Shown here: piece by piece, positions 3,364-54,537 of the stretch
Layout: each line of letters starts with the position of its first letter
Numbering within the stretch: position 1 is the first letter of the stretch
Assembly (NCBI GenBank): GCA_036381415.1
Contig: DASVCV010000003.1
Span: 4,162 to 68,161, forward strand
DNA length: 64,000 nt
Reading direction: 5' to 3'
Source: Patescibacteria group bacterium
GTDB taxonomy: Bacteria > Patescibacteriota > Microgenomatia > UBA8517
Made by a program: the position numbers and the translations under genes
The notes under the pieces: generated by a model
Seen by the model: the letters and a program-made list of their open reading frames with translations, nothing else
What the model was told of the DNA's origin: nothing
Databases searched by the model: none

Positions 3364-4560
3364 TTAGTCTATAAAGGTATAGGCTTTACCTTTTTTACCA
3401 GCACGGCCTGTACGGCCAATTCTATGAACATAATCTTCATATGATTCTGGAAGATCATAGTTAATTACATGGGTGACATTATTAATATCAAGGCCACGAG
3501 AGGCAATGTCTGTTGCAAGCAATATTTGAATGTAGTCATTTTTAAAGTCAGTGATTGCACGTTGTCTTTGACCTTGAGTTTTATTTCCATGAATGGAAGC
3601 TGCTCTAAATCCCCTATATGAGAGTTCACGGGATAGATTTTCAACTCCATATTTGGTTCTACCAAAAATTAGAACTTTTTTAAATTCATCTTTAATGAGC
3701 ATTTCATGGAGAACTTCAACTTTAGGTTTTCCATTTAATCTAATAATGTCCTGGTCAACATTTGCAGTTGGGGCATTTGAGGCAATTTGAATTATGACCG
3801 GGTTTCTTAATAATCTAGCCATGACTGATTGGATTTTAGGATTAAGGGTAGCTGAAAAGAATAATGACTGACGAGAAGAGGAAAGCTTTCCTACAATATC
3901 ATTAACATCATCAATAAATCCCATATCAAGCATGTGGTCTACTTCGTCAAGAACTATGTTCTTAAATTCACTAAAGTTTAGCTTTCTTTGTCTTTCTAGG
4001 TCTTTTAACCTTCCTGGTGTTCCAATTACAAATTGTGGACGACGGGAAAGGATTTTGATCTGTCCATACATACTTACTCCCCCAATACAAAGAACAGAAT
4101 ACATATTTAATCCACGGCTAAATTTTTCAAATTCATCTCTAATTTGAACTGCAAGCTCACGGGTTGGAGCTAAGATAAGGACTCTTTCCTGTGGGTTTTT
4201 AATGAGTTTATTAATTAAAGGAATTAAAAATGCAGCAGTTTTACCTGTTCCAGTTTTTGCAATTCCTACCAAATCGCGTCCATTAAGAAGCTCAGGAATT
4301 GCCTGGTCTTGGATAGGAGTTGGGGTTACATAGCCACAAGAGACTATATTGGCCTTTAATTTATCTGAAATGGCAAATCCAGCAAAGGTGTTTTTTGCTA
4401 CATATTCTTGATCTGCAACTGGCTTTTCTTCATGGGCTGATCTTTGGATTAGGACAGTTGGGTCAAATGATCTTTGACGCCTTCCTCCTCCACGACGAGG
4501 CCTTCCGAAGCCTCTTTGGCCACGGAAATTAGAATTAGAACGAAAATTTCTGTTATACAT
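3364..4560 (-). CDS. DEAD-box ATP-dependent RNA helicase with N-terminal RGG-rich tail
   Basis: Q-motif region, Walker A AKTGTGKTAAF, PTRELA, DEVD box (LDEVDHMLDMGF), SAT, HRIGRTGR. The N-terminus is Arg/Gly-rich (GRPRRGGGRRQR). Confidence 0.9.
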   Translation of the reverse strand: MYNRNFRSNSNFRGQRGFGRPRRGGGRRQRSFDPTVLIQRSAHEEKPVADQEYVAKNTFAGFAISDKLKANIVSCGYVTPTPIQDQAIPELLNGRDLVGIAKTGTGKTAAFLIPLINKLIKNPQERVLILAPTRELAVQIRDEFEKFSRGLNMYSVLCIGGVSMYGQIKILSRRPQFVIGTPGRLKDLERQRKLNFSEFKNIVLDEVDHMLDMGFIDDVNDIVGKLSSSRQSLFFSATLNPKIQSVMARLLRNPVIIQIASNAPTANVDQDIIRLNGKPKVEVLHEMLIKDEFKKVLIFGRTKYGVENLSRELSYRGFRAASIHGNKTQGQRQRAITDFKNDYIQILLATDIASRGLDINNVTHVINYDLPESYEDYVHRIGRTGRAGKKGKAYTFID

Positions 4561-8713: not shown

Positions 8714-9718
8714 TTAAGAATCTTTAATTAAACTCCAAGTTGCATATTCTTCAGGAGTAAGAGAGAGCTTTTTGGCTGATTTTCTACTGTAGGATCTTTC
8801 AAAATGCGGAACTAAAATATTTTTCTCGTAAGAAGTAATAATTACTGGGTGGATATAGTAGGTACGACAGACTTTCTTGGTATTTCCTAAATGATCTGCT
8901 ACTTCAGATACAACTTCTACGATATTTCTCTTAAGGTCAGTTGGTGTGGGGGCATTTCCTTTCTTGTACAAAGAATCTCCTGCTAAAACACTTCCTCCCC
9001 AGGTACGGAAATCTTTTGCAGAAAAGTCAGCTCCTGTGTGGACTTGCAAATAATTATTAACATCTTGGGAATCTACAACTTTTTTATTGTTGTCATCATC
9101 TACATATTGGAAGAGCTCATAACCTGGAAGTTCAATACATTCTTTTATTGTTTTGGCAATACGAGGGTAGGTAACATCAATGTCATGGAAGACACCACTT
9201 TTTCCTTTAAAGCTAAAAGTTACCGTGTTGCCTTCTACTTCTACATGTTTTTCCCGCATGGTTGTTAGACCATATGATTCATTCTCCTTGGCATATGTTT
9301 TATTGCCTACTCTAATGAAGGTGTGCTCTAACAACCAAACAACAGTTGCTACTACTCTATTCTGAGTTAGAGAACGTTCACTCATGTGAGCCTTAACTGC
9401 TTTTCGAAGAGTGGGAAGGCGCTCACCAAAGAGGACCATTTGGTCAAATTTACGTTCCTGGCTTTTTTTGACCCATTCTGGGTGATATATGTACTGCTTT
9501 CTGCCTGCAGCATCTATTCCTATTGCTTGAATATAATTCTTGGGATCTTTACTAATTTGAACATCTTTCCAGGCAGGAGGAATGACAAGACCTTTTATAC
9601 GGCTTGCTGCATTTTTAGAAACAGGTTTTCCACTTTCTGTTACAAACCTAAAGCCACTCTCCTTTTTAACTCTTTTCCAGGCAAGTTCTGTATCTTTACC
9701 ATAATGAATATGGGTCAT
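8714..9718 (-). CDS. DNA topoisomerase IB (poxvirus-type)
   Basis: 334 aa. Start MTHIHYGKDTELAWKRV..., core FRGKSG..., C-terminal CRTYYIHP...SYxK region with the active-site Tyr motif of bacterial TopIB. Confidence 0.8.
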   Translation of the reverse strand: MTHIHYGKDTELAWKRVKKESGFRFVTESGKPVSKNAASRIKGLVIPPAWKDVQISKDPKNYIQAIGIDAAGRKQYIYHPEWVKKSQERKFDQMVLFGERLPTLRKAVKAHMSERSLTQNRVVATVVWLLEHTFIRVGNKTYAKENESYGLTTMREKHVEVEGNTVTFSFKGKSGVFHDIDVTYPRIAKTIKECIELPGYELFQYVDDDNNKKVVDSQDVNNYLQVHTGADFSAKDFRTWGGSVLAGDSLYKKGNAPTPTDLKRNIVEVVSEVADHLGNTKKVCRTYYIHPVIITSYEKNILVPHFERSYSRKSAKKLSLTPEEYATWSLIKDS

Positions 9719-19707: not shown

Positions 19708-20931
19708 TTAATAAAGTTGAATTTTTTCTTGTAACAGCAATTTTGTAATTTCAGGAATAGATTTAACTTCCTTTTCAACTAGTTTTTTAACGCCATCTTT
19801 GTCTTTGAAATCTTCTGGAAGTGTTATAAATATTGCCCAAGGATCAAGTAAGTCTCTACCACTTTGGCTAATTAAGGCAACTTCGTTAGGAACTTTAAAT
19901 TCTTCATATATTTTTTTACTTATTTCATTAGCAGTCACATAATAAACTTTTCCAATATGATAAACAGGGTTTTTACCACATGCTCCTTCCATGCTCATTG
20001 GTCTAGTTGGTGAAATAACTCCATTTATTCTATTTCCTCTACCAACCAATCCTTCATCTCCACTTTCAATGGAAGAACCTATTGCCGTAAGGTAGAGCTC
20101 CATTGTGTTGAAATTGTCTCTGGTGTTGAAGTTAAGTTCTAAATCTTTTATTCCTAAATCTTTGGAAATTTTAAATATTACTTTCCTTGCCTTTTCCATA
20201 TTAGTTTTATATTCACCAGCAGATTTAACATGGTCTGCTATTTGAGGGATGCACATGGTAATTCCAAACTGGTCATGGTTTCTGTAACCCATTATTTTTA
20301 TGTCTGAACCAATCCAGGGATTTTCCTTTTTAAATTCTTCAGAATTTAAGGTGTTTTCAATTTTTAGTACTAGCTGCTCTAAGATTGTATGTGGTGCATA
20401 GCCTACCCCAAGAGATGTGTCATTTGAAACTAATTTCTTGGTTTCAGGTAAATCTTGTAGTGTTCTAGGTTCAAACCAATGCTTTCTTGGAGCATTTGTA
20501 GATTCAAATTCTTCTGTTTTTCCTGGACTACTTTGGCTACTTAAATTGTAATGAAACTCTAAATCCTTGTCTGGATTTATCATTGGAAATCTAGATTTAA
20601 GAAACTCTTTTGCCCAAGAAATTAACATTTCTTTAACAGGTATTTCTTCATCCCCAAACTTGGTTGATGCACGACCATTTAGTAAAACTCTAATTGGCTT
20701 AATCAGATAACCTTTACCAAACGTTACAAAAGAAGCTCCACCTAGAAGTCCCACTTTGTCAAAATTGTGATGTAAAACTGCTCCAAATTTTTCAAGGGTA
20801 TAGTTAGAGTATTTGACAGATAAAACCTCTGCTAATGCATCTGATAGGGTGTCTGGATGTCCAATCCCCTTTCTTTCAACAAACTCATAATCTGGGCTGT
20901 CTTTAGGCTTTTTAGTAATATAGATATTCAT
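19708..20931 (-). CDS. archaeal-type S-adenosylmethionine synthetase
   Basis: MNIYITKK...[18 protein letters not shown] is the N-terminal signature of archaeal-type MAT. 407 aa. Confidence 0.85.
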
Positions 20932-21424: not shown

Positions 21425-22510
21425 ATGATTAAGCAAAAAATAAATAATTACACACCAGATTTTATTGTTCACCCAGGTGTCACTTTGTCTGAAACGCTGG
21501 GTGCTATTGGTATGAGTCAAACCGAATTGTCCAAAAGAATTTCCCGACCAGAAACGGCAATTAGTGAAATTATAAACGGTTCCAAATCACTTACTCCCGA
21601 GACAGCAATCCAATTAGAAAGAGCTCTGGGCATCCCAGCTTCATTTTGGAATAATCTTGAGAAGAATTATCAGGAACTTAAAGCTAAATCTGAGTCTAAA
21701 AAAGCTTTACTTAAACAATCCGACCTAGCTGCAAATTATCCTTATGCTGAAATGGCAAAAAATGGCTGGGTGCAACAGACCAACAGTCTAGAAGAAAAAA
21801 TTGAAAATTTGTTGTCCTTCTTTGCAGTGGATAAATTATCTGTAATACCTGAAGTCATGCCTACTGCTTTTAGACAGCATAATGGGCGTTCTATATCCCA
21901 CTACTCTATACAAGCATGGCTGAGGAAGGGACTTATAGACAGTCAAATGGTAGATACAAAACCGTTTAATAAACAAAAATTAAACAATTTACTTGACGAG
22001 TTTAGAACGCTTTCAGTTGAAACCCCCAATATTATAGTGGACAAATTAACAAGATCCCTTGCAGAGTGCGGGATTGCTCTTGTATTCACAAAGGATTTAC
22101 CAAACACTTATGTCTGTGGAGCTTCTCGTTGGATAACACCTAACAAGGCAATCCTACAACTTTCATTAAGAGGACTTTATGCAGATATAATGTGGTTTAC
22201 TTTTTATCATGAATTAGGACACTTGTTGTTGCATAGCAAAAAGAAATATTTTGTAGATTTAAATCACACGACAAATAACACTGAGGAGGAAAAAGAAGCA
22301 GACAATTTTGCTTCGGAACACATTATCCCTGAACAAAAATTGTCTGAATTTATTTCAAAGAATGAAATTAGCGTCACATCAATTACAAATTTTGCTAACG
22401 AATTAGGTATCCATCCAGGAATTATTGTAGGTAGGCTCCAACACAAAAAGAAAATAGAATACAAGGATTTTAATCACCTAAGAGCTAAATATTATTTTGT
22501 AAAATCATAA
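21425..22510 (+). CDS. higA: HigA-type HTH antitoxin fused to an ImmA/IrrE-family metallopeptidase domain
   Basis: N-terminal HigA HTH (GVTLSETLGAIGMSQTELSKRISRPETAISEIINGSKSLTPETAIQLERALGIPASFW). C-terminal HEXXH (FYHELGHLLLH) with a downstream acidic residue, as in ImmA/IrrE. Confidence 0.7.
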   Translation: MIKQKINNYTPDFIVHPGVTLSETLGAIGMSQTELSKRISRPETAISEIINGSKSLTPETAIQLERALGIPASFWNNLEKNYQELKAKSESKKALLKQSDLAANYPYAEMAKNGWVQQTNSLEEKIENLLSFFAVDKLSVIPEVMPTAFRQHNGRSISHYSIQAWLRKGLIDSQMVDTKPFNKQKLNNLLDEFRTLSVETPNIIVDKLTRSLAECGIALVFTKDLPNTYVCGASRWITPNKAILQLSLRGLYADIMWFTFYHELGHLLLHSKKKYFVDLNHTTNNTEEEKEADNFASEHIIPEQKLSEFISKNEISVTSITNFANELGIHPGIIVGRLQHKKKIEYKDFNHLRAKYYFVKS

Positions 22511-22535
22511 AATTATTCTGAAGATGTAATGAATT

Positions 22536-23519
22536 ATGATGACTGGAAAAGAAAAACTCTATTTTCTTCTTGATACTATTGATGATGCAAGGTCTGTATC
22601 ACCTTCTGGCCAACCCTTAATTATTGATCCTGCGAATGACCTAAACGACAGACTTAGAGGTGTTGAATTAGAACAACTATTCACAAAGCTAGAAAAAGAC
22701 GAACAAGTCTTGAAAATTTTGCAAATCCCGAGCGGAATAAAAACTATTAGCATAGTTGAAGATGCTGATCCTTACGATCAGCTTTATGAAAATGACGATG
22801 GGTGTTGGCACATAGAACTTTTGCCTGCTTTTGATGACTATTTTTTAAAAATTCAAAATGAGCTTGAATATCAAGAGTTTACAGGCAAAAAACCGAGTTT
22901 TGAAACAGACATCCAAAGATTGTATGAAAAAATTCAGAAAGTAGATGAGCAAATCAGCATAAGAAGAGAGGCATGGGCTAAAGCTCAATCTACGATAAGC
23001 GACAATTCTTATTATTCTGAAGCAACAAGGACTGGACACCTTGCAAAACTTGAGCAACAAGCACAAACGGATATTGGTAATTTCATTAAACAAAAGGAAA
23101 CATACTTAGTAGAACTTAATCTTAGAAAAACAGATGTTCCAAAAAGCTCCCAAGCAAAACCTTTCAACGAAGAAGATAAATCAAACTCGGACAAGGTGTA
23201 TGAAATCACGTATATCTCAAGAGATATACTGCTTAATAATACTTTTCATTTAGCTAAACCAGATTTTGATAGCGAAAATGAGGTAGTTTTTTCATTTCTG
23301 TTTAATAATCCAAATCAGACTTTTAGTCGAACTGAAATAGAGGTGGAGATCCGAAGGAAAATAGCTAAGTCGCTTCATAAAATTGTAGAGAATCTGGGAT
23401 TTGTAGGTGATCTGAAAAAAGTTTTTTTTAACGTAAGCAAGGATTCTATCTGTTTCAAGAATCCTGTAACTAGACCTGATTTAGACAAGCTAGGGGTTGT
23501 CCACATTAAACTCCCCTAG
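22536..23519 (+). CDS. hypothetical protein
   Basis: 327-aa acidic protein with no recognisable motifs. Confidence 0.4.
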   Translation: MMTGKEKLYFLLDTIDDARSVSPSGQPLIIDPANDLNDRLRGVELEQLFTKLEKDEQVLKILQIPSGIKTISIVEDADPYDQLYENDDGCWHIELLPAFDDYFLKIQNELEYQEFTGKKPSFETDIQRLYEKIQKVDEQISIRREAWAKAQSTISDNSYYSEATRTGHLAKLEQQAQTDIGNFIKQKETYLVELNLRKTDVPKSSQAKPFNEEDKSNSDKVYEITYISRDILLNNTFHLAKPDFDSENEVVFSFLFNNPNQTFSRTEIEVEIRRKIAKSLHKIVENLGFVGDLKKVFFNVSKDSICFKNPVTRPDLDKLGVVHIKLP

Positions 23520-23847
23520 CGGTTGATAGGCATACGCTCCTTTTTGTACCTAAGTTTCCCTACCACGACGACAAACTACCAAATCGTCCTTATTCTCCTT
23601 TTATGGAAACAAAAAAAGCGGAACAAACCCAAGAGGAAACAGACAGGCACAAAGATCGTTTGGCCAAATTTTTTAATCTTTTGATTGAAATTGACCAGAA
23701 GAACAAGAGGAAAGAGGTGAATAAAGATGTATAAGAAATCAAATTTTCAAAAGAAACTACAGGAATTACTAGCAAAAGAATACAAGCGAATGCTAAGCGA
23801 AAACATAAAAAAAGGTTTCAAGTTGGCTATAGAAAGGAAAAATAAAA

Positions 23848-24135
23848 ATGAGAATAAGTGAAATTCAGATTATTCCGATCAAACCGCAAAACGGCCTTGT
23901 TGCCTTTGTGAGCTTTGTTTTAGACAGTAACCTTTATCTTAGTTCAATTGGTGTAATCACAAGACCACAAGGTGGTTACAGACTTACCTACCCTACTAAA
24001 AGAGTGGGTGTAAAAGACTTAAATATTTTCTATCCGATAAATAAAACTTTTGCAGAAGAAATAGAAAAGGAGGTGTCAGCAAAGCTTGAAGAAGTAATGA
24101 ATAATTATGATAGATACAATAAAACTAGTGCTTGA
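23848..24135 (+). CDS. SpoVG-family protein
   Basis: MRISEIQIIPIKPQNGLVAFVSFVLDSNLYLSSIGVITRPQGGYRLTYPTKRV... matches the SpoVG fold pattern (MxITDVRI..., G.Y.IS.P). Confidence 0.55.
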   Translation: MRISEIQIIPIKPQNGLVAFVSFVLDSNLYLSSIGVITRPQGGYRLTYPTKRVGVKDLNIFYPINKTFAEEIEKEVSAKLEEVMNNYDRYNKTSA

Positions 24136-25243
24136 TAGCAGTATGTATACAATTTTAGGTATGAATTTTTTTGAAAAAGGTAAAACAAATATGAGTCGTG
24201 GTTATTCAACATTTGTTCAAAATCCTACACAGAGTGAGTTGAAACGAGGTATATATAGACCGAGATTAACTGAGACTCATAGATATAATTGTTCTGGCCG
24301 TTCAGGTAAGACTTTAACTATTGAACTTTCTCTTCCCAAACTTATGTATGGAAATAATTTTGATGAATTAAAAGATGAAGATTTTCCTGTCGTATTTGAA
24401 AAGCTAAGACAGGTGTTAAAAGATGTGTCTGTTCGTGTTTATGAAAAGAGTTTAGAAAATGCACCTGTTTCTGCGGCTCACTATTCAAAAAACATTCCTT
24501 TAACTGATGGTTTAACTCCTCACTTTCTTATAAGTAAAATTAAAGAAGCGAATATTAAGCTTTCTCTTGATATTAGCGAGACTAGTTACAGTAATGATGG
24601 CCACATCTACAAATGGCACAGCAATTCCTATGAAGTTACTTTTTATGACAAAATTCATGATTTAGGAAAAGCTAAGGTTAGTGACAAAAGAGCAATAGAA
24701 AGAGACAATGCAATTCAGCTTGGTCTATTTGATAACTTTAAAAATAGAAAAATGTTTGAGGTTTTGCGAATGGAGATACGTTTAAAAAGGCCAAAGATGC
24801 GTAAATTATTTAGCGAATTGGGTATAGAAAAAGAATTCACATTTAAGAAACTGTTTAGCTCTCAAATCTCACAAAAAGTATTGCTACATTACCTTAATGA
24901 GATTGAACAGCAACGACTCCCCCTTCTTGACTATTCAACTTCAGACAAAGCTTTGTTGGCTGATTTAGTTATCAATAATCCTTCACTAGGAATAAAAAGA
25001 ACCCTGCAATTATATGGGTTTAAACAAGCGTTAAATAACGTGAGTATTCGTGAATTAAGGACGATGTTTGGGAAATGCAGTTCAAATAGCTGGTATAGAT
25101 TGATGTCTGATGCTAATAAAGTTAAGCCTCTTCCCCATCCAAGTCCTTTTAAAGTTATTAGAGATAATTTAGAAAGATTTGAACCGCTAAACATTGTTGA
25201 CTTTCAAGATGACAAGATGTTAAATAATGATAAATATAACTGA
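24107..25243 (+). CDS. hypothetical protein, possibly a replication-initiation (Rep_trans/phage CRI-like) factor
   Basis: 378 aa. N-terminal MIDTIKLVLDS resembles the IDxL start of Rep_trans proteins. Embedded among recombinase and excisionase genes. Confidence 0.3.
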   Translation: MIDTIKLVLDSSMYTILGMNFFEKGKTNMSRGYSTFVQNPTQSELKRGIYRPRLTETHRYNCSGRSGKTLTIELSLPKLMYGNNFDELKDEDFPVVFEKLRQVLKDVSVRVYEKSLENAPVSAAHYSKNIPLTDGLTPHFLISKIKEANIKLSLDISETSYSNDGHIYKWHSNSYEVTFYDKIHDLGKAKVSDKRAIERDNAIQLGLFDNFKNRKMFEVLRMEIRLKRPKMRKLFSELGIEKEFTFKKLFSSQISQKVLLHYLNEIEQQRLPLLDYSTSDKALLADLVINNPSLGIKRTLQLYGFKQALNNVSIRELRTMFGKCSSNSWYRLMSDANKVKPLPHPSPFKVIRDNLERFEPLNIVDFQDDKMLNNDKYN

Positions 25244-25418
25244 TATGGCACAGGAGTATTACTACTCTATCGAGGAGGTAGCAAAAACGTTAAAAGTTGC
25301 CTACCTTACTGTTTATCGATGGGTACAAGCAAAAAAATTAGCAGCCTTCAAAGCAGGCAAGCAGTACAGGATTAGGAAAGAAGACTTAGATCTGTTCTTA
25401 AAAGGTTATGAAGAATAA
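25227..25418 (+). CDS. excisionase/MerR-like HTH DNA-binding protein
   Basis: 63 aa. YYSIEEVAKTLKVAYLTVYRWVQAKKLAAFKAGKQYRIRKEDLDLFL has the shape of excisionase-family HTH_17 proteins. Confidence 0.55.
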   Translation: MINITDMAQEYYYSIEEVAKTLKVAYLTVYRWVQAKKLAAFKAGKQYRIRKEDLDLFLKGYEE

Positions 25419-26223
25419 AGGTATGAATAACTCATTTAAAATTCCAATTGAACAAGAGGATTATGACTATTGTTCTCAATTAGTAAGAAAAGAAATCAGT
25501 AAAATAATTCAAACAGCTATTGAAAAAGGTGATAACAAAATATTTATTCATACAAATCTACGCAGAGGGCTACCATTAGAAAATATAAACAAAGTTGCAG
25601 GTCCTTTTGTGGAAGCATGGGCATTGGAAAAGTTTGAAAAAATAGCTGAAAATCCTTTAAACGAATATAACTTAGTTAATGTTGAACCTGGTGTGCGTTT
25701 GGCACCATACGATATTATTCTTCAGTTTAAGAAGAAAAAGAGTAATGCTTCAGAAGTAGCGACTGCAAATGTGGATGTGAAAGCTACCTCAGACGATATT
25801 CCAACCTCTGGCCGAAGTCCAAACATAACTTCCTTTGGCAGGATACGAACAGAATATATTAACGATCCAGATTACATTTTTATTATTTTGTCATTGAAAC
25901 ATAAAGTCTATGGTGAAAGAAATGACAAAACTGGGATGACAAATGGAATTATGGAAGTTACAACCTACTCAGTTTACGATTTAAAATATGTAGATGAAAA
26001 AGATATTAGTTATAATCCAGCTCTCGGAACAGGTCAATTGCAAATACGAGACATTCATTATGTGTCTGAGACAAAAAGAACTACTTGGGAATTTCTCCAA
26101 ATATTGGATAGGAAGTTTATACGCTCAAAAGGCCAATCTGCTTGGGACAAGTTGGCAAAAATACATGGTTGGTTAATCGGAACAGAACCAAAAGTAGAAG
26201 TTACCGCAGAAGAAGTTCTATGA
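25408..26223 (+). CDS. putative type II restriction endonuclease
   Basis: Stop overlaps the MTase start (ATGA). Possible PD-(D/E)xK elements (PYDIIL ... NVDVKAT). Confidence 0.35.
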   Translation: MKNKGMNNSFKIPIEQEDYDYCSQLVRKEISKIIQTAIEKGDNKIFIHTNLRRGLPLENINKVAGPFVEAWALEKFEKIAENPLNEYNLVNVEPGVRLAPYDIILQFKKKKSNASEVATANVDVKATSDDIPTSGRSPNITSFGRIRTEYINDPDYIFIILSLKHKVYGERNDKTGMTNGIMEVTTYSVYDLKYVDEKDISYNPALGTGQLQIRDIHYVSETKRTTWEFLQILDRKFIRSKGQSAWDKLAKIHGWLIGTEPKVEVTAEEVL

Positions 26224-27014
26224 AGACTAATTATTTCATTGTTGGTGATGCCATTGAAAAAATGCAAAGACTCCCGAACGAGTCTATTGATTTAGTGGCA
26301 ACTGATCCACCTTATAATCTAGGGAAGAATTACGGCAATAACATCGACTACAAGGAGTGGCATGATTACCAACTGTTTACAGAAAGATGGCTGTCTGAGG
26401 CTGTGAGAGTTTTGAAATCATCAGGTAGTATTTATGTGTTTATGGGGGTAAGGTTTATTTCTAAGCTATTTACTTTAATGGAAGAAAAAGGCTTATTATT
26501 CAATGGTTGGATCACCTGGCACTACACTCAAGGTATGGGTAGAACACTTGGATTTTCCCCACGACATGAAGATCTTTTGTATTTTACCAAATCATCTAAT
26601 TTTACTTTTAATTTAGATGATATAAGAGTTCCACAAAAATACTTCCGAGAAAGAAATAACATGAAGGGTGCAAACCCTGGTGACGTTTGGCTGTTTTCTC
26701 ATGTTCATTACTCAAATCCAGAAAGGCAACCTCACCCTACACAAAAACCCTTGGCTGTAATGGAAAGGATAATTAAAGCAAGTTCAAATAAAGGTGATCT
26801 CGTTTTAGATCCGTTTGTAGGAAGTGGAAGTACATGCGTTGCTGCAAATGCACTAGATCGAAAATGGATAGGAATTGATACTAATCCAGATTATATTAAA
26901 ATGTCTAAAAAAAGAATATCGGAAATTTATTCTCCTGACTCCTTTGACCCTCGTCAAAGCAGAACTCCCCGAGATCTTAAAAAAAATGTTAATCAGAAAG
27001 GTTTACTTTTTTGA
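26220..27014 (+). CDS. DNA methyltransferase, beta-class amino-MTase (N4-C or N6-A)
   Basis: Motif IV VATDPPYNL precedes motif I LDPFVGSGST. The ORF track started it at an upstream alternative codon (26142). Confidence 0.85.
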   Translation: MKTNYFIVGDAIEKMQRLPNESIDLVATDPPYNLGKNYGNNIDYKEWHDYQLFTERWLSEAVRVLKSSGSIYVFMGVRFISKLFTLMEEKGLLFNGWITWHYTQGMGRTLGFSPRHEDLLYFTKSSNFTFNLDDIRVPQKYFRERNNMKGANPGDVWLFSHVHYSNPERQPHPTQKPLAVMERIIKASSNKGDLVLDPFVGSGSTCVAANALDRKWIGIDTNPDYIKMSKKRISEIYSPDSFDPRQSRTPRDLKKNVNQKGLLF

Positions 27015-27016
27015 CA

Positions 27017-28480
27017 ATGAAAGCAATAATCCTAGCTAGAGTATCTACTGAAGAACAAAAAGAGGCTGGAAATTCTTTACCTGCTCAACAAGCTAGGCTA
27101 AGAGCCTACATAGATAGAAAGTCCGATTTTCAATTAGTAAAAGAGTTTATATTTGATGAGTCAGCATATCAAGATAAAGAAAGGAAAAAATTTCAGCAGG
27201 TTGTTGATTATATTAGCAACCAAAAAGAAACAATTGCAGTTTGTTGCGATAAAGTAGATAGATTAAGCAGAGATTTTTTACTTGGTTTGCCTGCCTTAGA
27301 AAAGCTTAGAAGAATTGGTAAGATTGAATTGCACTTTCCTTCTGATAACTTAGTTATTCATAAAGATTCTCCTGCAACTGATCTATTTCACTACAATATT
27401 GCTTTGAGTTTGGCTCAATATTTTTCAAACGCTATTAGCGATAACGTCAAAAGAGCAATTGAACAAAAGCTCCGCAATGGTGAGTGGCCAGGTAAAGCTC
27501 CTTATGGATATAAAAATATAAGTATAAGCGAAGATAAAAAGGATATTATAGTGGATGAATTTACTTCAAGAGTTGTAAAGAAAATGTATGAGTGGTATTC
27601 AACGGGTGCCTATTCCCTACTCATTATTAGAAAGAAACTTAAAGAAGATCATAACATAGATTTTTCAAAGGGTTATATTGATGCAATTCTTAAAAATCCT
27701 TTCTATTGTGGTTTAATGCGTTTCAAAGGCGACCTTTACCCTCATAAATATGAACCTTTAATTTCTAAAGAGCTGTTTGATAAGGTGCAACAAATAAAGG
27801 CTGGGTATAACAAGAAGCATCATAAGTTTGCAGGGCTTCCCTACGCATATAGGGGCTTAATTCGCTGTGCTGTGTGCGGTTGTATGATAACCCCTGAGAA
27901 GCATAAAGGTCATATTTACTATCACTGCACACAATACAAAGGTAAGCATAAGATGGAATGGCTTAGAGAAGAAGATATAACCGAACAGTTTGCACAGTTA
28001 TTTAAAAAGCTACAGATACCACAAGAAATATTGGAAGATATCACAAACTCGCTTAAAAGCGTTCATAAGGGAAAAATTGAATACAGAGAGGAAGAGTTTA
28101 AAGCATTAAATGCGGAAAAGAATAAATACGCGAAAAGAATTGAACACTCATACGAGGATAGACTTGATGGGCGTATTACTGTAAATGAATATGACAAATA
28201 TCACACTGAGTTTAGAAATAAGATAAACGAAATTGATAGTAAATTAGCAAACTTACAGAAAGCAGAAGATGACTATTATTTGAGCGCAAAATACCTTCTG
28301 GAATTGGCAAACAGAGCTTCTGATTTATTCAAAAGTTCTGAAATTGAGGAAAGACGCCAACTTTTGAAGCTTACACTTCAGAACCTTACCTTGGATGGTA
28401 AAAAAGTCCGATTCCAAGCTCAAAAACCCTTTGATACAATCTTAAATTTCGCAGATAGTCCTTCTTGGCTCCCCCGGTAG
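27017..28480 (+). CDS. large serine recombinase (resolvase/invertase N-domain plus recombinase and zinc-ribbon domains)
   Basis: KAIILARVSTEEQ (catalytic Ser), C-terminal CAVCGC...CTQYKG zinc ribbon and a coiled-coil tail. Its stop codon lies inside the tRNA-Asn 3' exon on the opposite strand. Confidence 0.85.
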   Translation: MKAIILARVSTEEQKEAGNSLPAQQARLRAYIDRKSDFQLVKEFIFDESAYQDKERKKFQQVVDYISNQKETIAVCCDKVDRLSRDFLLGLPALEKLRRIGKIELHFPSDNLVIHKDSPATDLFHYNIALSLAQYFSNAISDNVKRAIEQKLRNGEWPGKAPYGYKNISISEDKKDIIVDEFTSRVVKKMYEWYSTGAYSLLIIRKKLKEDHNIDFSKGYIDAILKNPFYCGLMRFKGDLYPHKYEPLISKELFDKVQQIKAGYNKKHHKFAGLPYAYRGLIRCAVCGCMITPEKHKGHIYYHCTQYKGKHKMEWLREEDITEQFAQLFKKLQIPQEILEDITNSLKSVHKGKIEYREEEFKALNAEKNKYAKRIEHSYEDRLDGRITVNEYDKYHTEFRNKINEIDSKLANLQKAEDDYYLSAKYLLELANRASDLFKSSEIEERRQLLKLTLQNLTLDGKKVRFQAQKPFDTILNFADSPSWLPR

Positions 28481-28727
28481 GATTCGAACCTACAACCTTA
28501 TTCTTACAGTACCCCTTCTGTTACCAAAAGGACTGGACTATCTCATCTCCCTTAATGGGAGTCGGGTATATAGTCTCTACACATTTACTCTATTTAAAAA
28601 TAGAGATTTAGCTCGGGATTATCCTTTTTACAGGATTTCCCCGAATTAGCCCGATTTTACATTCTGCATTACTACAGAACGCTGCCTAACTTGACAGGAA
28701 TCTGCTCTGCCGTTGAGCTACAGGGGA
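28469..28727 (-). tRNA. tRNA-Asn(GUU) gene interrupted by a group I intron
   Basis: The 5' exon 28694..28727 reads TCCCCTG-TA-GCTC-AACGGCA-GAGC-A-GATTC-CUGU and ends in U. The 3' exon 28469..28506 reads UAA-GAAUA-AGGUU-GUAGG-UUCGAAU-CCUAC-CGGGGGA-G and follows an intronic G. Spliced, the anticodon loop is CUGUUAA, the acceptor stem pairs with one G-U, and CCA is encoded at 28466..28468. Confidence 0.6.
28507..28693 (-). ncRNA. group I intron (Azoarcus tRNA-Ile intron-like, ~187 nt) in the anticodon loop of tRNA-Asn
   Basis: P, Q, R and S elements are present. AAUUCGGGGAAAUCC (P) pairs with AAUCCCGAGC (Q). GUGUAGAGACUAUAUACC (R) and GAGAUAGUCCAG (S) form the P7 GACUA/UAGUC pairing and closely resemble the Azoarcus GUGUAGAGACUAGACGG. 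There is a U-G pair at the 5' splice site (exon CUGU with intron GGCAG) and a terminal omega-G. Confidence 0.6.
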
Positions 28728-28809
28728 ATGTTAATGAACAGGCTTATTATATCAGATTTTAGTTAAACTGCTATTGCTTTTAACTCATCTATGATACTAA
28801 AATGAATTT

Positions 28810-33713: not shown

Positions 33714-33715
33714 GC

Positions 33716-33798
33716 GGAAGGGACAGGATTCGAACCTGCGAGGGCTTGCGCCCACACGCTCTCCAAGCGTGCGCCTTGAACCGCTCGGCCACCCTTCC
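33716..33798 (-). tRNA. tRNA-Ser(GGA)
   Basis: Reverse complement GGAAGGG-UG-GCC-GAGCGGUUCAA-GGC..., anticodon loop UUGGAGA, long variable arm, T-loop GGUUCGAAUCC, acceptor CCCUUCC-G. Confidence 0.75.
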
Positions 33799-34239
33799 CT
33801 ATTTTTTCTTTTTCTTTTTTTCTGCCTCTAATTTTTTAAGAAGGTCACGAGCTCCCCTTAACATGGCTTGGTCTCTTTTGGTGGTAAGCTTTTTAATAGC
33901 TTTTCCATATTCAAACCAATCATATGCAGCAAAACCTAGTACTTCTTTTCCTTCTTTATTAATCATTAAGTAATAAAGATACCTTTGAGGAACGGTGCGC
34001 CCTCCAAGCATTGCAGCTCCTCCACCACGGCCTACTTCTTCAAGGACTTTTGCTCTCATTCCACCTTGCTCACCCATGGCTCTAATTACTGCTCTAACTG
34101 AAGACTCTCCCCTTCTTGCAGTGGTTTTGGGAAGTTCCCAATCAGAATCTTCTTTTTGTTTTACAAGAAACCAAGTTGTTTTACCATTTGCCTTGCGGTA
34201 AACAACTGCTGCTCCTACTAATAATATTTTTTCTTTCAT
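33799..34239 (-). CDS. hypothetical protein, weakly NUDIX-like, Lys-rich C-tail
   Basis: 146 aa. WELPKTTARRGESSVRAVIRAMGEQGG resembles a degenerate Nudix box. The C-terminus is KKKKKK. Confidence 0.35.
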   Translation of the reverse strand: MKEKILLVGAAVVYRKANGKTTWFLVKQKEDSDWELPKTTARRGESSVRAVIRAMGEQGGMRAKVLEEVGRGGGAAMLGGRTVPQRYLYYLMINKEGKEVLGFAAYDWFEYGKAIKKLTTKRDQAMLRGARDLLKKLEAEKKKKKK

Positions 34240-34252
34240 TTTTTCAATTATG

Positions 34253-34324
34253 TGTCCCTGGTCAGAATTGAACTGACATCAAAGGTTCCGGAAACCTTTA
34301 CTTTATCCATTAAGCTACAGGGAC
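34253..34324 (-). tRNA. tRNA-Arg(CCG)
   Basis: Reverse complement GUCCCUG-UA-GCUU-AAUGGAUA-AAGU-A-AAGGU-UUCCGGA-ACCUU-UGAU-GUCAG-UUCAAUU-CUGAC-CAGGGAC-A. Confidence 0.75.
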
Positions 34325-34352
34325 TTATTATACTCTACTTTGTAGCCTAATG

Positions 34353-34435
34353 CGGAGAGGACAGGACTCGAACCTGCAAGGGCTTACGCCCGCCGGTTTT
34401 CGAAACCGGTACCTTACCATTCGGTACACCTCTCC
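34353..34435 (-). tRNA. tRNA-Ser(CGA)
   Basis: Reverse complement GGAGAGG..., anticodon stem CCGGU/ACCGG with loop UUCGAAA, long variable arm GCGGGCGUAAGCCCUUGC, T-loop GGUUCGAGUCC, acceptor CCUCUCC-G. Confidence 0.75.
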
Positions 34436-34449
34436 TTAATTTTAATTTG

Positions 34450-34521
34450 TGCACCCGCCCAGAGTCGAACTGGGATCAAAAGCTCCGCAAGCTTGTACTC
34501 TATCCATTGAGCTACGGGTGC
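34450..34521 (-). tRNA. tRNA with anticodon GCG (Arg, unusual G34)
   Basis: Reverse complement GCACCCG-UA-GCUC-AAUGGAUA-GAGU-A-CAAGC-UUGCGGA-GCUUU-UGAU-CCCAG-UUCGACU-CUGGG-CGGGUGC-A. There is a C27-U43 mismatch in the anticodon stem. Confidence 0.6.
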
Positions 34522-34524
34522 AAG

Positions 34525-35076
34525 TTATTTATTACCCGGCATCCTTTTTGAAACCCAGATGGTTGCTTTATCTATATATGAAGGTGGAATTTCTTCATGT
34601 ACTAAGTACTCTGAAATTTCCTTTTTAATTTCATCCTTCACACTAGAATTAACAACCACTTCTAGACGGCCAGGCAGAGTTACTGTTTCTACAACCAAAA
34701 GTTCACTGTCAAACCTTTTAGTAAACCAAAATCTTCCCATTACATCCCAAGATGTGGTCTTACCTGCCACATTTATTCCTTTATTAGTAATTTTGTACTG
34801 GATGTTTTCAGGCTCTACAGTACTCATTACATAGAAAAGAAATACAAGAGAAATTATTAGAATTACAGGTAAAAAGCCTTCTATTAAAAAAAGAACAAAT
34901 CCGGCAACAGCTGCCATTGCTATCACTGTTACAAAAAACTCTTTGTTTCTTCTTTTAAAAGGCCTTGCTGGCGCGGTCCAAGTTACCAAGTCTTTTTCAG
35001 GCTCAGATTTCATCACTTCTGGCTTTGTATTTTGGTTTTCTGGTAATGTGCTACTTTCTTTTTCAATGGCAGGCAT
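34525..35076 (-). CDS. membrane protein with bacterial PH (bPH_2/YdbS-like) domain
   Basis: Two TM helices followed by a PH-like domain (KITNKGINVAGKTTSWDVMGRFWFTKRFDSELLVV). Confidence 0.45.
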   Translation of the reverse strand: MPAIEKESSTLPENQNTKPEVMKSEPEKDLVTWTAPARPFKRRNKEFFVTVIAMAAVAGFVLFLIEGFLPVILIISLVFLFYVMSTVEPENIQYKITNKGINVAGKTTSWDVMGRFWFTKRFDSELLVVETVTLPGRLEVVVNSSVKDEIKKEISEYLVHEEIPPSYIDKATIWVSKRMPGNK

Positions 35077-35144
35077 ATTAACCCATATTATACGCTAGTT
35101 TAGGGTACGTTCCAAGCTTACAATCTGATATAATGTGCTTGTTT

Positions 35145-35230
35145 GGAGGGTATCCCGAACGGCTCAGGGAATGGTTTGCTAAACCATAACGTTTAATTGC
35201 GTTAGGTGGGTTCGACTCCCGCACCCTCCG
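35145..35230 (+). tRNA. tRNA-Ser(GCU)
   Basis: GGAGGGU-AU-CCC-GAACGGCUCA-GGG-AA-UGGUU-UGCUAAA-ACCAU with long variable arm AACGUUUAAUUGCGUUAG, then GUGGG-UUCGACU-CCCGC-ACCCUCC-G. This parse is a 5-bp stem with a UGCUAAA loop (the working notes used AUGGU/UUGCUAA/ACCAU); under either parse the anticodon is GCU. Confidence 0.75.
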
Positions 35231-35262
35231 CACTAAGCCAAATTTGCTATAATCTACTATAG

Positions 35263-35353
35263 GGTGAGGTGTCCGAGAGGCCGATGGAGTTAGTCTTGAA
35301 AACTAATGTAGCGAATTTCGTTACCGTGGGTTCGAATCCCACCCTCACCGCCA
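35263..35353 (+). tRNA. tRNA-Ser(UGA), CCA encoded
   Basis: GGUGAGG-UG-UCC-GAGAGGCCGAU-GGA-G-UUAGU-CUUGAAA-ACUAA with long variable arm, then GUGGG-UUCGAAU-CCCAC-CCUCACC-G-CCA. Confidence 0.75.
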
Positions 35354-36452: not shown

Positions 36453-36815
36453 GGGGACGATCGGTTTCGACGAGAAGCACTTTAAAAAAACTGCAAGCCA
36501 AGTTTGATTCACACTTGTAAAAAGGGGTCAAAAAATAACAGCTAAATCTAACGATTCAGCTTCAGTTAATCAAAACTTTGTTTTTGCTTAACTGACATCC
36601 TGAGATTTGATTCTCGACCGAATTGAATGGGTGTAAGAAAGATCGAGATATATATTAGTTTTCTGGCTTAGAAACTAATAATGAAAAAATTAAGCCTTAC
36701 TCTAAATTATCCTGTTAGCTGGTAAGATTTAGAGGAAATAAATAATAACTAAACAAGCTTGTAGAGGTTTTTCGAAGCACTTTTACGGACGAGGGTTCAA
36801 TTCCCTCCGTCTCCA
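36453..36815 (+). ncRNA. ssrA: tmRNA (ssrA)
   Basis: 5' GGGGACGAUCGGUUUCGACG and 3' GGACGAGGGUUCAAUUCCCUCCGUCUCCA form a tRNA-like domain. The internal reading frame after AAAAAAUAACA reads GCU AAA UCU AAC GAU UCA GCU UCA GUU AAU CAA AAC UUU GUU UUU GCU UAA, giving tag AKSNDSASVNQNFVFA. Confidence 0.8.
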
Positions 36816-36839
36816 CTAGATTTAAGAAATATTAATTAA

Positions 36840-53459: not shown

Positions 53460-54428
53460 TTAACACTTAACATTTTCTCCACAGTGTTTGCAGTTAGATA
53501 GCAATTTATGAGGTTCTCTTGTGTTTATTCTATGGCAATATGGACACTCAAAATTTAATGATCCATATTCGTCTTCTTGTCTAACAATCTTTACCATTCC
53601 AAATAAACTTTTGTTTTGCATTGAAAGAAGATCTCTGTTTAATACACCACACCCACCCCGAGAGAGGTTCCATCCCCTCTCCTCCATTCCATTTTCAATT
53701 CTTGCACCTCTGTGCAACAGATCCTCCTTACTAACTTTGGCGTCATTTAATACTTTTTTGCTTTCTTCTCTTGCATCTTTAAGGGCCTTCATTTTTAAAT
53801 GGTGAGCTTCTCCATGGCTAATTTTTTCAAACAGGACTGACAGTTCTGGAAAAGTTGATGAAAGGAAATTAACCCAATTGGAGTTTTGAGGTGGCAAAAA
53901 GATAGAGATCTTATCTCTTAAGTCTTCTGGGGCTTTTATTTGCTGACTTGGTTTATCAGAAAACTCTTCAAGCATTAAGAATAACTTTTCACAATATTCT
54001 GGAGTTACATCTTTTAATGGGATCCCATATGATTGAAGTACTTTTACTCCTAATATTTCTCTAACTTTTCCAATTTCAAACCTACCTTCCTGATAATTAA
54101 ATTCTCCTCCGGGCGGACTGACCCAGGCTAAAACTGTTCCAGGTTCTTCATCAACTAAAGCTTGCCTTATTATTAACCCTGCAATTTTTTCTTTTTGAGT
54201 TTGAGGTGTTTCATCTGAATAAAAATCTTTGACATCTCTTGTCTTATCTAAGCTGGGATTAACTACTAGTCCATTCGACAGATGAGCAAGAAAAAAGCTG
54301 TGTATATTTCCTGAAGATTCTATGACTAAAGCTGCAGTATCTCTTTCAAGAGCCTTTCTATTAAAGCCTTCTGACTTTTGATACCTTGATAGATCAAATG
54401 CTTTGCGTGATTCTAATATTCTTTCCAT
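53460..54428 (-). CDS. hypothetical protein with C-terminal zinc ribbon
   Basis: 322 aa ending CPYCHRINTREPHKLLSNCKHCGENVKC (CxxC...CxxC). Confidence 0.4.
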   Translation of the reverse strand: MERILESRKAFDLSRYQKSEGFNRKALERDTAALVIESSGNIHSFFLAHLSNGLVVNPSLDKTRDVKDFYSDETPQTQKEKIAGLIIRQALVDEEPGTVLAWVSPPGGEFNYQEGRFEIGKVREILGVKVLQSYGIPLKDVTPEYCEKLFLMLEEFSDKPSQQIKAPEDLRDKISIFLPPQNSNWVNFLSSTFPELSVLFEKISHGEAHHLKMKALKDAREESKKVLNDAKVSKEDLLHRGARIENGMEERGWNLSRGGCGVLNRDLLSMQNKSLFGMVKIVRQEDEYGSLNFECPYCHRINTREPHKLLSNCKHCGENVKC

Positions 54429-54537
54429 ATTCCTGCTCGGGATATTAGATTGTTAGTTTTCTGGCTTTACAGTTGCGGCACAGCTAGGGATTTGCACCCT
54501 ATTCCTTAAACACAATCTTTAAGTCATCATAAAATCT

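Follow-up and report, generated by a model that had tools for sequence, protein, structure and literature searches.

The minus strand of the window, by which we mean the whole stretch of 64,000 nucleotides that was analysed, carries two tRNA halves with a spacer between them, and together they very probably form a tRNA-Asn(GUU) gene of a member of the Patescibacteria (CPR) that is interrupted between U35 and U36 by a self-splicing group I intron (Table 1). A preliminary description had proposed such a gene, split between anticodon positions 35 and 36, and both in-silico splicing and an Rfam search bear the proposal out. The 5' half, with acceptor arm, D-arm and an anticodon stem followed by CUGU, lies on the minus strand where it had been placed, the spacer has exactly the length of 187 nt that had been given, and the 3' half comprises UAA, anticodon stem, variable loop, T-arm, acceptor strand and G73, followed by a CCA (28468..28466) that falls beyond the range of 28469-28727 originally assigned to the gene.

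Joining the exons in silico after U35 and after the terminal G of the intron yields a canonical 72-nt tRNA that ARAGORN calls as tRNA-Asn(gtt). In this product the ligated exons read CUGUUAA, the normal anticodon loop of tRNA-Asn, and the acceptor end consists of a U1-A72 pair, G73 and the encoded CCA. The tRNA-Asn of E. coli likewise has U1-A72 and G73. ARAGORN in default mode calls no tRNA on the unspliced locus, and the search for a separate intact tRNA-Asn gene found no other within the 64-kb window. A possible extended -10 promoter element (TGaTATAAT, 28746..28754, minus strand) was noticed by eye 19 nt upstream of tRNA position 1. A consensus scan for promoters and terminators gave nothing convincing, its one weak match, beside this candidate -10, being no better than those in shuffled sequences.

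Table 1. Coordinates of the split tRNA gene, the intron elements and the adjoining gene in the window.
Feature	Coordinates	Strand	Description and basis
tRNA-Asn 5' exon	28727..28694	minus	34 nt; tRNA positions 1-35 without position 17; acceptor UCCCCUG, D-arm, anticodon stem GAUUC, last nucleotides C32 U33 G34 U35; sequence
Group I intron	28693..28507	minus	187 nt; Rfam RF00028, covariation in 22 relatives, fold z-score
tRNA-Asn 3' exon	28506..28469 (with CCA 28506..28466)	minus	U36 A37 A38, anticodon stem GAAUA, variable loop AGGUU, T-arm, acceptor CGGGGGA, G73 (28469); sequence
P1 hairpin	28697..28682	minus	CUGU and intron C1 (28697..28693) with guide GGCAG (28686..28682); Rfam alignment
P10	28689..28687 with 28506..28504	minus	guide UUA in P1 loop AAGUUA with exon-2 UAA
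P2	28679..28662	minus	7 bp; GUAA (GNRA) tetraloop L2 at 28672..28669
P3	28654..28650 with 28566..28562	minus	UCGGG with CCCGA
P4-P6 domain	28644..28581	minus	Rfam alignment and covariation
P4	28644..28639 with 28618..28613	minus	
P5	28635..28632 with 28625..28622	minus	
P6	28612..28611 with 28582..28581	minus	
P6a	28605..28599 with 28594..28588	minus	
P7	28577..28571 with 28540..28535	minus	guanosine-binding helix; G-A(bulge)-GACUA with UAGUCC
P8 hairpin	28561..28547	minus	CUCCC-AUUAA-GGGAG; also in minimum-free-energy fold
J8/7 and P7 3' strand	28546..28535	minus	AUGAGA and UAGUCC; Rfam alignment, covariation
P9.0	28534..28532 with 28510..28508	minus	AGU with ACU
P9	28531..28525 with 28520..28514	minus	7 bp; GUAA tetraloop L9 at 28524..28521
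Large serine recombinase gene	27011..28480	plus	Pfam Resolvase, Recombinase and Zn_ribbon_recom

Identity and secondary structure of the intron

The Rfam model Intron_gpI (RF00028; gathering score 50 bits) matches the minus strand at 28703..28514 over its full length (model positions 1-253) with 89.4 bits and an E-value of 1.6e-21, and each of two composite patterns combining tRNA and intron-core elements occurs once in the window and in none of 100 shuffled sequences. Because of this score and E-value and the lack of matches in the shuffles, the intron stands far beyond chance. It begins with CAAGUUAGGCAGC and ends with GGGGUACUG, and the four strings that the preliminary description had quoted as core elements P, Q, R and S are all found in it (AAUUCGGGGAAAUCC at intron positions 47-61, AAUCCCGAGC at 74-83, GUGUAGAGACUAUAUACC at 112-129 and GAGAUAGUCCAG at 150-161). 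The two splice-site features named there are present as well: U35 (28694) forms a U-G pair with intron G9 (28685), conserved as such in 22/22 relatives, and the terminal omega-G lies at 28507. A terminal G is found in 93/93 split genes among the matches listed from public genomes, which is not independent evidence because the enumeration of splice sites tried only introns ending in G. There is no open reading frame on the intron's own strand, and no homing endonuclease is carried.

A model of P1 to P10 was built by hand and scored on a MAFFT alignment of 22 relatives. In these, 88.5% of cells are paired, as against 34-47% with slid partners, and both-sided changes occur in 38 of 60 pairs; none of 500 shuffles reaches the observed values. 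The fold from P1 to P9 can be drawn completely, with P3-P7 placed by the covariance model; P10 is drawable too, and covariation backs P1-P9 and P9.0 but not P10. A thermodynamic fold (z = -5.26) recovers P2, P3, P4, P5, P6a, P8, P9 and P9.0.

Exon CUGU and guide GCAGC occur unchanged in 22/22 relatives, while the pair formed by the first intron nucleotide with the guide covaries between CG, GC, AU and UA. P10 amounts to only 3 bp in the window, and many relatives have a weak P10 (44% paired). All seven pairs of P2 covary, P9 is paired in 95.5% of cells with compensation in 7/7 pairs, and both L2 and L9 are GNRA loops throughout. P3 is paired in 100% of cells, with compensatory changes in four of its five pairs; pairing reaches 99% in P4, 83% in P5, 100% in P6 and 86% in P6a, with compensatory changes in P4, P5 and P6a. 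P7 is nearly invariant (98.5% paired). The four outer pairs of P8 are paired in 92% of cells and three of them show compensatory changes, the fifth, loop-closing pair being paired in 50% and split off by the MAFFT alignment; P9.0 is paired in 78%, with covariation.

This degree of preservation makes it very unlikely that the locus is a decaying pseudogene whose intron splices poorly or not at all while an intact tRNA-Asn elsewhere does the work. Such decay would be consistent with a G27·A43 mismatch at the top of the anticodon stem, with the short P10 and with the mobile element that adjoins the 3' end of the tRNA, and the visible genome comprises 64 kb only. However, all core helices are intact, the locus ranks near the top of the 19 scored with Rfam, it retains every nearly invariant core column of its clade, and synteny with relatives is conserved. 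As for the mismatch, it is a lineage trait, because it is common to relatives, namely the loci L022 and L114 and 10 of 83 split tRNA-Asn genes among the matches listed.

Relatives, published class and subgroup

Group I introns of tRNA-Asn/Asp at 35/36 were catalogued by Williams 2020 as class 'Asn.4Ug' (bioRxiv 10.1101/2020.01.27.920355), and Nakagawa et al. (mSystems 2026; PMC13011429) characterised the 35/36 introns of Patescibacteria, where they are the commonest type of tRNA intron. The latter study demonstrated precise in-vitro self-splicing at 35/36 for one tRNA-Asn and one tRNA-Asp intron, using an omega-G to C change as control, and confirmed the junction by sequencing the ligated products of these two homologs. 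The expectation that a tRNA-Asn host and this lineage would both be unusual does not hold, as host and site are listed in Williams 2020 and Patescibacteria are the phylum in which the class is commonest. Synteny and protein similarity place the host of the window locus in this phylum, membership of which is an enrichment and not a strict requirement. We thus regard the locus as a real, intact-looking and ordinary further example of a described arrangement, and it is probably functional; we infer the activity of its intron from homologs with about 77-81% identity, which is the range of BLAST identity to the members of its clade.

One pattern scan of public genomes returned at least 120 loci. 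Among the matches listed, in-silico splicing at 35/36 yields tRNA-Asn from 82 other genes and tRNA-Asp from 9, and one locus (L043) is identical to the published, validated 196-nt tRNA-Asp intron of Woesebacteria. All 18 of the loci scored with Rfam Intron_gpI gave 60-109 bits. Sixteen of the 120 listed matches are intact tRNA-Asn or tRNA-Asp genes with a chance AATT..G.GAAA downstream and were set aside; the genera producing false positives in the scan are Citrobacter, Pectobacterium, Yersinia, Pantoea, Mesorhizobium and others. The scan shows that the 35/36 family, of which 28 cases had been counted in complete genomes (PMC13011429), is far commoner than that in public MAGs.

To position the intron among named systems, core segments were compared over 70 positions in place of a plain global alignment, which gives 53% identity to the Azoarcus intron and is not structure-aware. 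The nearest kin are compact introns of the Microgenomatia type, with 64/70 identical core positions in GCA_001029755.1 and 66/70 in GCA_030583725.1, both published members. The former, from the tRNA-Asp(GUC) gene of Woesebacteria GW2011_GWF1_31_35 (CP011214.1), is the intron of L043 for which splicing in vitro was demonstrated, and it belongs to the compact clade of the window intron. It shares with the window intron the phylum, the site after U35, the invariant P1 of exon CUGU with guide GCAG, a compact build with no P7.1/P7.2 and with GNRA loops at L2 and L9, and 100% identity over J5/4-P4'-P6 and J6/7-P7-J7/3. It differs in its host, where exon 2 starts with CAC instead of UAA and the P10 guide changes with it, in its length of 196 nt versus 187 nt, and in compensated changes in P2, P6a, P8 and P9.

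The tRNA-Asn(GUU) introns of Saccharimonadia and Paceibacteria (e.g. GCA_016700035.1, 234 nt, spliced in vitro) have the same host, site, P1 and phylum, and J8/7-P7' is identical in the window and the published Saccharimonadia tRNA-Asn intron (GAUGAGAUAGUCCA). In contrast to the window intron, they carry a P7.1-like hairpin insertion of 25-45 nt between P7 and P3' and are classed as IA; core identity to them is only 47-50/70. The tRNA-Ile intron of Azoarcus resembles the window intron as a compact anticodon-loop intron with no P5abc and no P7.1/7.2 and with GNRA loops on P2 and P9, and the two have the core strings GUGUAGAGACUA and AUAGUCCAG in common. It sits after position 36, however, with exon CAU and guide GUG, in a betaproteobacterial host, is GC-rich with longer P6a and P8, and at 50/70 core identity is no closer than other families. 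The cyanobacterial and plastid tRNA-Leu(UAA) intron (Nostoc PCC 7120, 249 nt, IC3) likewise lies in a tRNA anticodon loop with U at -1 and an omega-G, and usually has no homing endonuclease, but it is longer, occupies site 34/35 and shares 48/70 core positions with the window intron.

The label Azoarcus-like therefore fits the architecture only, the core sequence being no closer to Azoarcus (50/70) than to the Patescibacteria introns labelled IA (47-50/70). The layout is of the compact IC3 type: P2 is present, P2.1, P5abc and P7.1/7.2 are missing, and L2 and L9 are GNRA loops. Only UAUA (4 nt) lies between P7 and P3', and thus P7.1/P7.2, the classical mark of IA at this place, is absent from the window intron. 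Covariance models have put 25 of the 28 published 35/36 introns in IA and no Patescibacteria tRNA intron in subgroup IC (PMC13011429). Two further IC3 introns share 48-54/70 core positions with the window intron, which shows no clear subgroup preference.

The intron had also been described as among the smallest of its group. At 187 nt it is indeed small, but it is no record: the published minimum for the 35/36 family is 184 nt, and Rfam-positive relatives in the scan have predicted lengths of 174 nt (L092), 179 nt (L024) and 182 nt (L114). These show that the compact branch that lacks P7.1 extends down to about 174 nt.

Gene neighbourhood and inheritance

The order dnaG-rpoD-split tRNA-Asn is common to the window, the Patescibacteria MAG L092 and Woesebacteria L068. 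RpoD is 80% and DnaG 51% identical between the window and L092, and RpoD is 64% identical to that of L068. From these sequences the host would belong to the Patescibacteria (CPR), most likely of the Microgenomatia type, a placement at phylum level that leans on the MAG labels given by submitters, some of which look wrong. On the opposite strand, the last 12 nt of the large serine recombinase gene overlap the 3' end of the tRNA, and the same overlap geometry is seen at other split-tRNA loci. The recombinase gene ends a block of genes on one strand (21425..28480) resembling a small integrated element, and no repeat of the tRNA 3' end that would mark the far boundary of this element was found when searched for.

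The adjoining recombinase raises the question of whether a functional intron was gained recently by horizontal transfer, for instance together with this element or with a phage, which we consider very unlikely. The same intron core motifs do occur in tRNA genes on viral contigs, matches whose classification is ambiguous, and by BLAST the closest introns lie in tRNA-Asp genes of other MAGs. In a neighbour-joining tree, however, the window intron groups with tRNA-Asn introns of Woesebacteria and Gottesmanbacteria, that is, with Asn-hosted introns of related taxa of the Microgenomates type, and the intron lacks a homing endonuclease. The split gene moreover predates the recombinase element, because L092 has the same synteny without a recombinase. 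The intron appears to have been inherited vertically within its lineage.

Proposed splicing pathway and implications

Splicing of the tRNA-Asn precursor would proceed as follows. The gene would be transcribed as a precursor of roughly 260 nt, in which the intron is predicted by covariance model and covariation to fold into P1-P2, the P4-P6 stack, the P3-P8/P7 pseudoknot and P9/P9.0, with GNRA loops on P2 and P9. Pairing of the guide GGCAG with CUGU and intron C1 would set the U35·G wobble, invariant in relatives, at the 5' splice site. By the mechanism of the family, a free guanosine bound in P7 would attack after U35; the terminal G at 28507 would next take the same P7 site, and P10, formed by UUA with exon UAA, would align exon 2. 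Ligation would then give CUGUUAA, a product obtained here in silico, with splicing established experimentally only for homologs.

Other junctions yielding another tRNA, either tRNA-Thr(UGU) with the intron at 33/34, to which tFind/ARAGORN often shift the 35/36 class by two bases (PMC13011429), or tRNA-Asp(GUC), which ARAGORN with intron detection (-i) calls on the unspliced locus with a 166-nt intron at 37/38, are scarcely credible: the two-base shift would end the intron in C (..GGUAC before UGUAAG) and not G, and the ARAGORN -i model is rejected because removing the intron from its 262-nt span gives a 96-nt product, which is no tRNA. Both the covariance model and the covariation put the P1 U·G wobble at U35, and a tRNA of standard length arises from the 35/36 splice alone; this product has 87% identity to the spliced tRNA-Asn of L022. 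The ligated products sequenced from two homologs have the 35/36 junction (PMC13011429).

With a little less than even confidence, we suggest that the compact introns form a distinct sub-lineage of the 35/36 family that possibly includes its smallest active members and records a switch between Asn and Asp hosts. If active, the introns of L092 (174 nt), L024 (179 nt), L114 (182 nt) and the window (187 nt) would be the smallest natural self-splicing group I introns known, set against the published minimum of 184 nt and the 205 nt of the Azoarcus model, and the shortest could serve as minimal ribozyme scaffolds. The Asn clade and its Asp sister clade, with one invariant CUGU/GCAG P1 and P10 guides matched to the host, would on this proposal record a host switch by reverse splicing.

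The practical value of the window locus is modest and concerns annotation, as it extends a known family by another intact-looking member and raises no new biological question; the compact branch reaching down to about 174 nt could interest ribozyme engineers. Because standard tRNA finders miss or mis-call the gene, the genome would be scored as lacking tRNA-Asn, an annotation gap from missed split tRNAs that Nakagawa et al. have already raised (PMC13011429).

The split tRNA-Asn gene and its intron

The preliminary description, which had read this locus as a tRNA-Asn(GUU) gene split by a group I intron, is confirmed by a match to the full length of the Rfam model Intron_gpI at 28703..28514 on the minus strand (89.4 bits, gathering score 50, E = 1.6e-21), and by joining the exons in silico at the junctions it had proposed, upon which ARAGORN calls a 72-nt tRNA-Asn(gtt) whose cloverleaf is normal apart from a single mismatch, G27.A43. 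The intron contains each of the four core strings given there, and composite tRNA-plus-intron patterns have one match each in the window, against none in 100 shuffled sequences. Past G73, where the coordinates had originally ended, the gene also encodes CCA.

We drew the secondary structure of the intron in full, guided by the Rfam alignment. The U.G pair at the 5' splice site and the terminal omega-G, both claimed from the outset, are present, the former as U35.G9 in P1. Neither P5abc nor P2.1 is present in the drawn structure, and P7.1 and P7.2 are absent because the gap between P7 and P3' consists of UAUA only. No ORF was found on the intron's own strand, and therefore no homing endonuclease. 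A thermodynamic fold (-61.6 kcal/mol, z = -5.26) recovers P2, P3, P4, P5, P6a, P8, P9 and P9.0, the P7 pseudoknot being beyond what the method can represent.

Features of the window and structural elements of the intron
Feature	Position	Strand	Detail
tRNA 5' half, 34 nt	from 28727	minus	UCCCCUG-UA-GCUC-AACGGCA-GAGC-A-GAUUC-CUGU
Intron, 187 nt	28693..28507	minus
omega-G	28507	minus
tRNA 3' half	down to 28466	minus	UAA-GAAUA-AGGUU-GUAGG-UUCGAAU-CCUAC-CGGGGGA-G-CCA
Encoded CCA	28468..28466	minus
P1			exon CUGU + intron C1 with guide GGCAG; U35.G9 at splice site
P10			guide UUA (P1 loop) with exon-2 UAA
P2			7 bp, GUAA tetraloop cap
P3			UCGGG with CCCGA
P4			6 bp
P5			4 bp
P6 / P6a			2 bp / 7 bp
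P7			G-A(bulge)-GACUA with UAGUCC
P8			5 bp
J8/7			AUGAGA
P9.0			AGU with ACU
P9			7 bp, GUAA tetraloop cap
Large serine recombinase	27011..28480	plus	abuts 3' end of split tRNA-Asn
One-strand block	21425..28480	plus	about 7 kb, closed by recombinase
Bacterial type IB topoisomerase	8714..9718	minus
Archaeal-type S-adenosylmethionine synthetase	19708..20931	minus	PF01941
tRNA cluster, then tmRNA	33714..35353 and 36453..36818		tRNA-Ser x4 (GGA, CGA, GCU, UGA), tRNA-Arg x2 (CCG, GCG)
Large ORF, 642 aa	37433..39361	minus	zero Pfam matches
Large ORF, 1175 aa	45254..48781	plus	zero Pfam matches
AdoCbl-II (cobalamin) riboswitch aptamer	54447..54518	minus	41.2 bits, gathering score 36.5
ORF downstream of aptamer	53460..54428	minus

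Relatives and published introns at position 35/36

We scanned one genome per GTDB species for a GUN-type tRNA 5' half ending in CUGU and followed after 30-60 nt by AATTNNGNGAAA, which yielded at least 120 loci; as the pattern also requires GTAGYTCA in the D-arm, the scan counts are lower bounds. For the loci without an intact tRNA gene, we enumerated all splices in which the exon has U at -1 and the intron terminates in G, and used ARAGORN to see which of them yield a tRNA. Besides the window, this in-silico splicing predicts at least 82 tRNA-Asn(GUU) and at least nine tRNA-Asp(GUC) genes, all split between anticodon positions 35 and 36, with predicted intron lengths among the matches listed of 174-327 nt in Asn hosts and 183-229 nt in Asp hosts. 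Intron_gpI lies at the predicted position in all 18 loci checked with Rfam (60-109 bits). Sixteen of the matches listed have intact tRNA genes and were set aside as false positives.

In 14 viral contigs from IMG/VR (L121-L134), the core motifs GTAGAGACTA...GATAGTC occur directly 5' of a tRNA T-arm. When spliced in silico, one of these contigs (L123) gives a putative tRNA-Asn split at 35/36, and others give tRNA-Lys, Arg or Leu as candidate hosts; for six of the 14 it gave no clear tRNA.

For analysis of covariation, 22 compact relatives were aligned with MAFFT, the alignment not being fitted to structure, and pairs were then counted for the drawn structure. Standard pairs occur in 88.5% of cells, compared to 34-47% with partners slid by 1-3 columns, both-sided changes are seen in 38 of the 60 pairs, with covariation in P3, P9, P8, P6a and P2, and none of 500 shuffles attained any observed pairing measure. 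Across these relatives, exon CUGU and guide GCAGC are invariant, and intron nucleotide 1 covaries with the base 5' of the guide (CG, GC, AU, UA). P10 is weak (44% paired); its guide in tRNA-Asp hosts is usually GUG, pairing with exon CAC, rather than the UUA of the window.

The tFind software took the intron-bearing tRNA classes from four classical to 21 cases (Williams, bioRxiv 2020, 10.1101/2020.01.27.920355), and a passage in Nakagawa et al. (mSystems 2026, PMC13011429; preprint July 2025) names the 'Asn.4Ug' class of that work as the first report of a 35/36 intron. The latter authors describe 333 tRNA introns of 184-894 nt in 4,934 complete genomes, amongst them 28 at 35/36, 19 of these in Patescibacteria; classification by covariance models placed 25 of the 28 in IA and no Patescibacteria tRNA intron in IC. 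They also demonstrated precise in-vitro self-splicing of one tRNA-Asn and one tRNA-Asp intron by sequencing, with an omega-G to C control. The latter, from GCA_001029755.1 and 196 nt long, is the same intron as that of a Woesebacteria locus in our scan (L043, CP011214.1). The initial view that a tRNA-Asn host would be unusual is outdated in light of both reports, as is that of an unusual lineage, since this type is the typical tRNA intron of Patescibacteria, the window's phylum.

The window's intron was compared with reference introns over four core segments that add up to 70 nt. The core agrees at 66/70 positions with the tRNA-Asp intron of GCA_030583725.1 (184 nt) and at 64/70 with the validated one of GCA_001029755.1, in contrast to 50/70 for the Azoarcus tRNA-Ile intron (sequence from PMC8890501), 48/70 and 54/70 for two other IC3 introns, and 47/70 and 50/70 for P7.1-bearing tRNA-Asn introns of Saccharimonadia and Microgenomatia. 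The label 'Azoarcus-like' holds for the compact architecture, but not for the relationship. With its 187 nt, the intron falls below the length of the Azoarcus one (205 nt) and near the published minimum of 184 nt, in keeping with its placement among the smallest, but three Rfam-positive predicted 35/36 tRNA-Asn introns are shorter still and lie below that minimum, with 174 nt in the Patescibacteria MAG L092 (about 4042..4330; 66 bits), 179 nt in L024 (60.5 bits) and 182 nt in L114 (60.2 bits), each above the Rfam gathering score. These three, together with a 192-nt intron in which P6a is almost absent (L087), are predicted candidates for minimal natural group I ribozymes. LOOT RNA (RF03000) occurs a few kb from the split tRNA-Asn in L114 (7681..7801, plus strand, 77 bits) and L024 (1939..2060, minus strand, 65 bits), both Yanofskybacteria loci.

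Genomic context and proposed mechanism

One flank of the split gene carries polysaccharide deacetylase, rpoD and dnaG. A tblastn comparison of window ORFs with the fetched loci, which bear their submitters' taxon labels, finds the same gene order in L092 (DnaG 51% and RpoD 80% identical, split tRNA-Asn) and the same arrangement in Woesebacteria L068 (RpoD 64%). The mature tRNA-Asn is 87% identical to that of the Gottesmanbacteria locus L022, and a neighbour-joining tree (no bootstrap) built on the core columns of the introns places the window with L068 and L022, with Asp-hosted compact introns as sister group. Based on synteny, tRNA identity and intron tree, we assign the window to a Patescibacteria genome, which judging from these sequences is probably of Microgenomatia type. 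The same dnaG-rpoD-split-tRNA synteny is seen in three loci labelled 'uncultured Pseudomonadales' or 'Gammaproteobacteria' (L040, L058, L083), with RpoD 64-65% identical to the window's, the same level as in Woesebacteria; these labels are probably wrong, the MAGs resembling Patescibacteria, and five further loci (L041, L117, L056, L013, L029) are possibly mislabelled likewise.

On the opposite strand, the serine recombinase overlaps the tRNA-Asn 3' end by 11 nt, or 12 nt counting the stop codon. The block that it closes looks like an integrated element and contains an XRE+ImmA/IrrE-type regulator, unknowns, a SpoVG-like protein and an N6/N4 DNA methylase. Among the matches listed (93 loci searched, window included), recombinase homologs lie beside split tRNA-Asn/Asp in 11 others (L010, L077, L049, L082, L005, L024, L108, L058, L083, L114, L085), four of which show an overlap of 9-11 nt (11 in the window by the same measure), three of the four homologs being C-terminal fragments only. 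L092 shares the window's synteny without the recombinase, and a search for a tRNA-end repeat marking the far boundary of the element found none. These loci may represent a family of serine-integrase elements using the tRNA-Asn 3' end as attachment site in Patescibacteria, a matter separate from and without bearing on the intron.

The best explanation for the split gene is ordinary group I self-splicing: fold, splice-site geometry and product are seen in silico, and catalysis would follow by analogy with the validated homologs. The guide GGCAG would pick out CUGU of the anticodon loop, a sequence common to GUN-anticodon tRNAs, which explains why the hosts are tRNA-Asn, Asp and Tyr. Attack by exogenous guanosine would occur after U35; ligation to U36 would then be directed by omega-G together with P9.0 and P10. 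It is very unlikely that the locus is a decayed pseudogene. A recent horizontal arrival of the intron together with the neighbouring element is more improbable still, and shifted splice junctions are the least credible of these alternatives.

Elsewhere in the window, the AdoCbl-II aptamer lies directly upstream of a minus-strand ORF, and the tmRNA encodes the tag peptide AKSNDSASVNQNFVFA.
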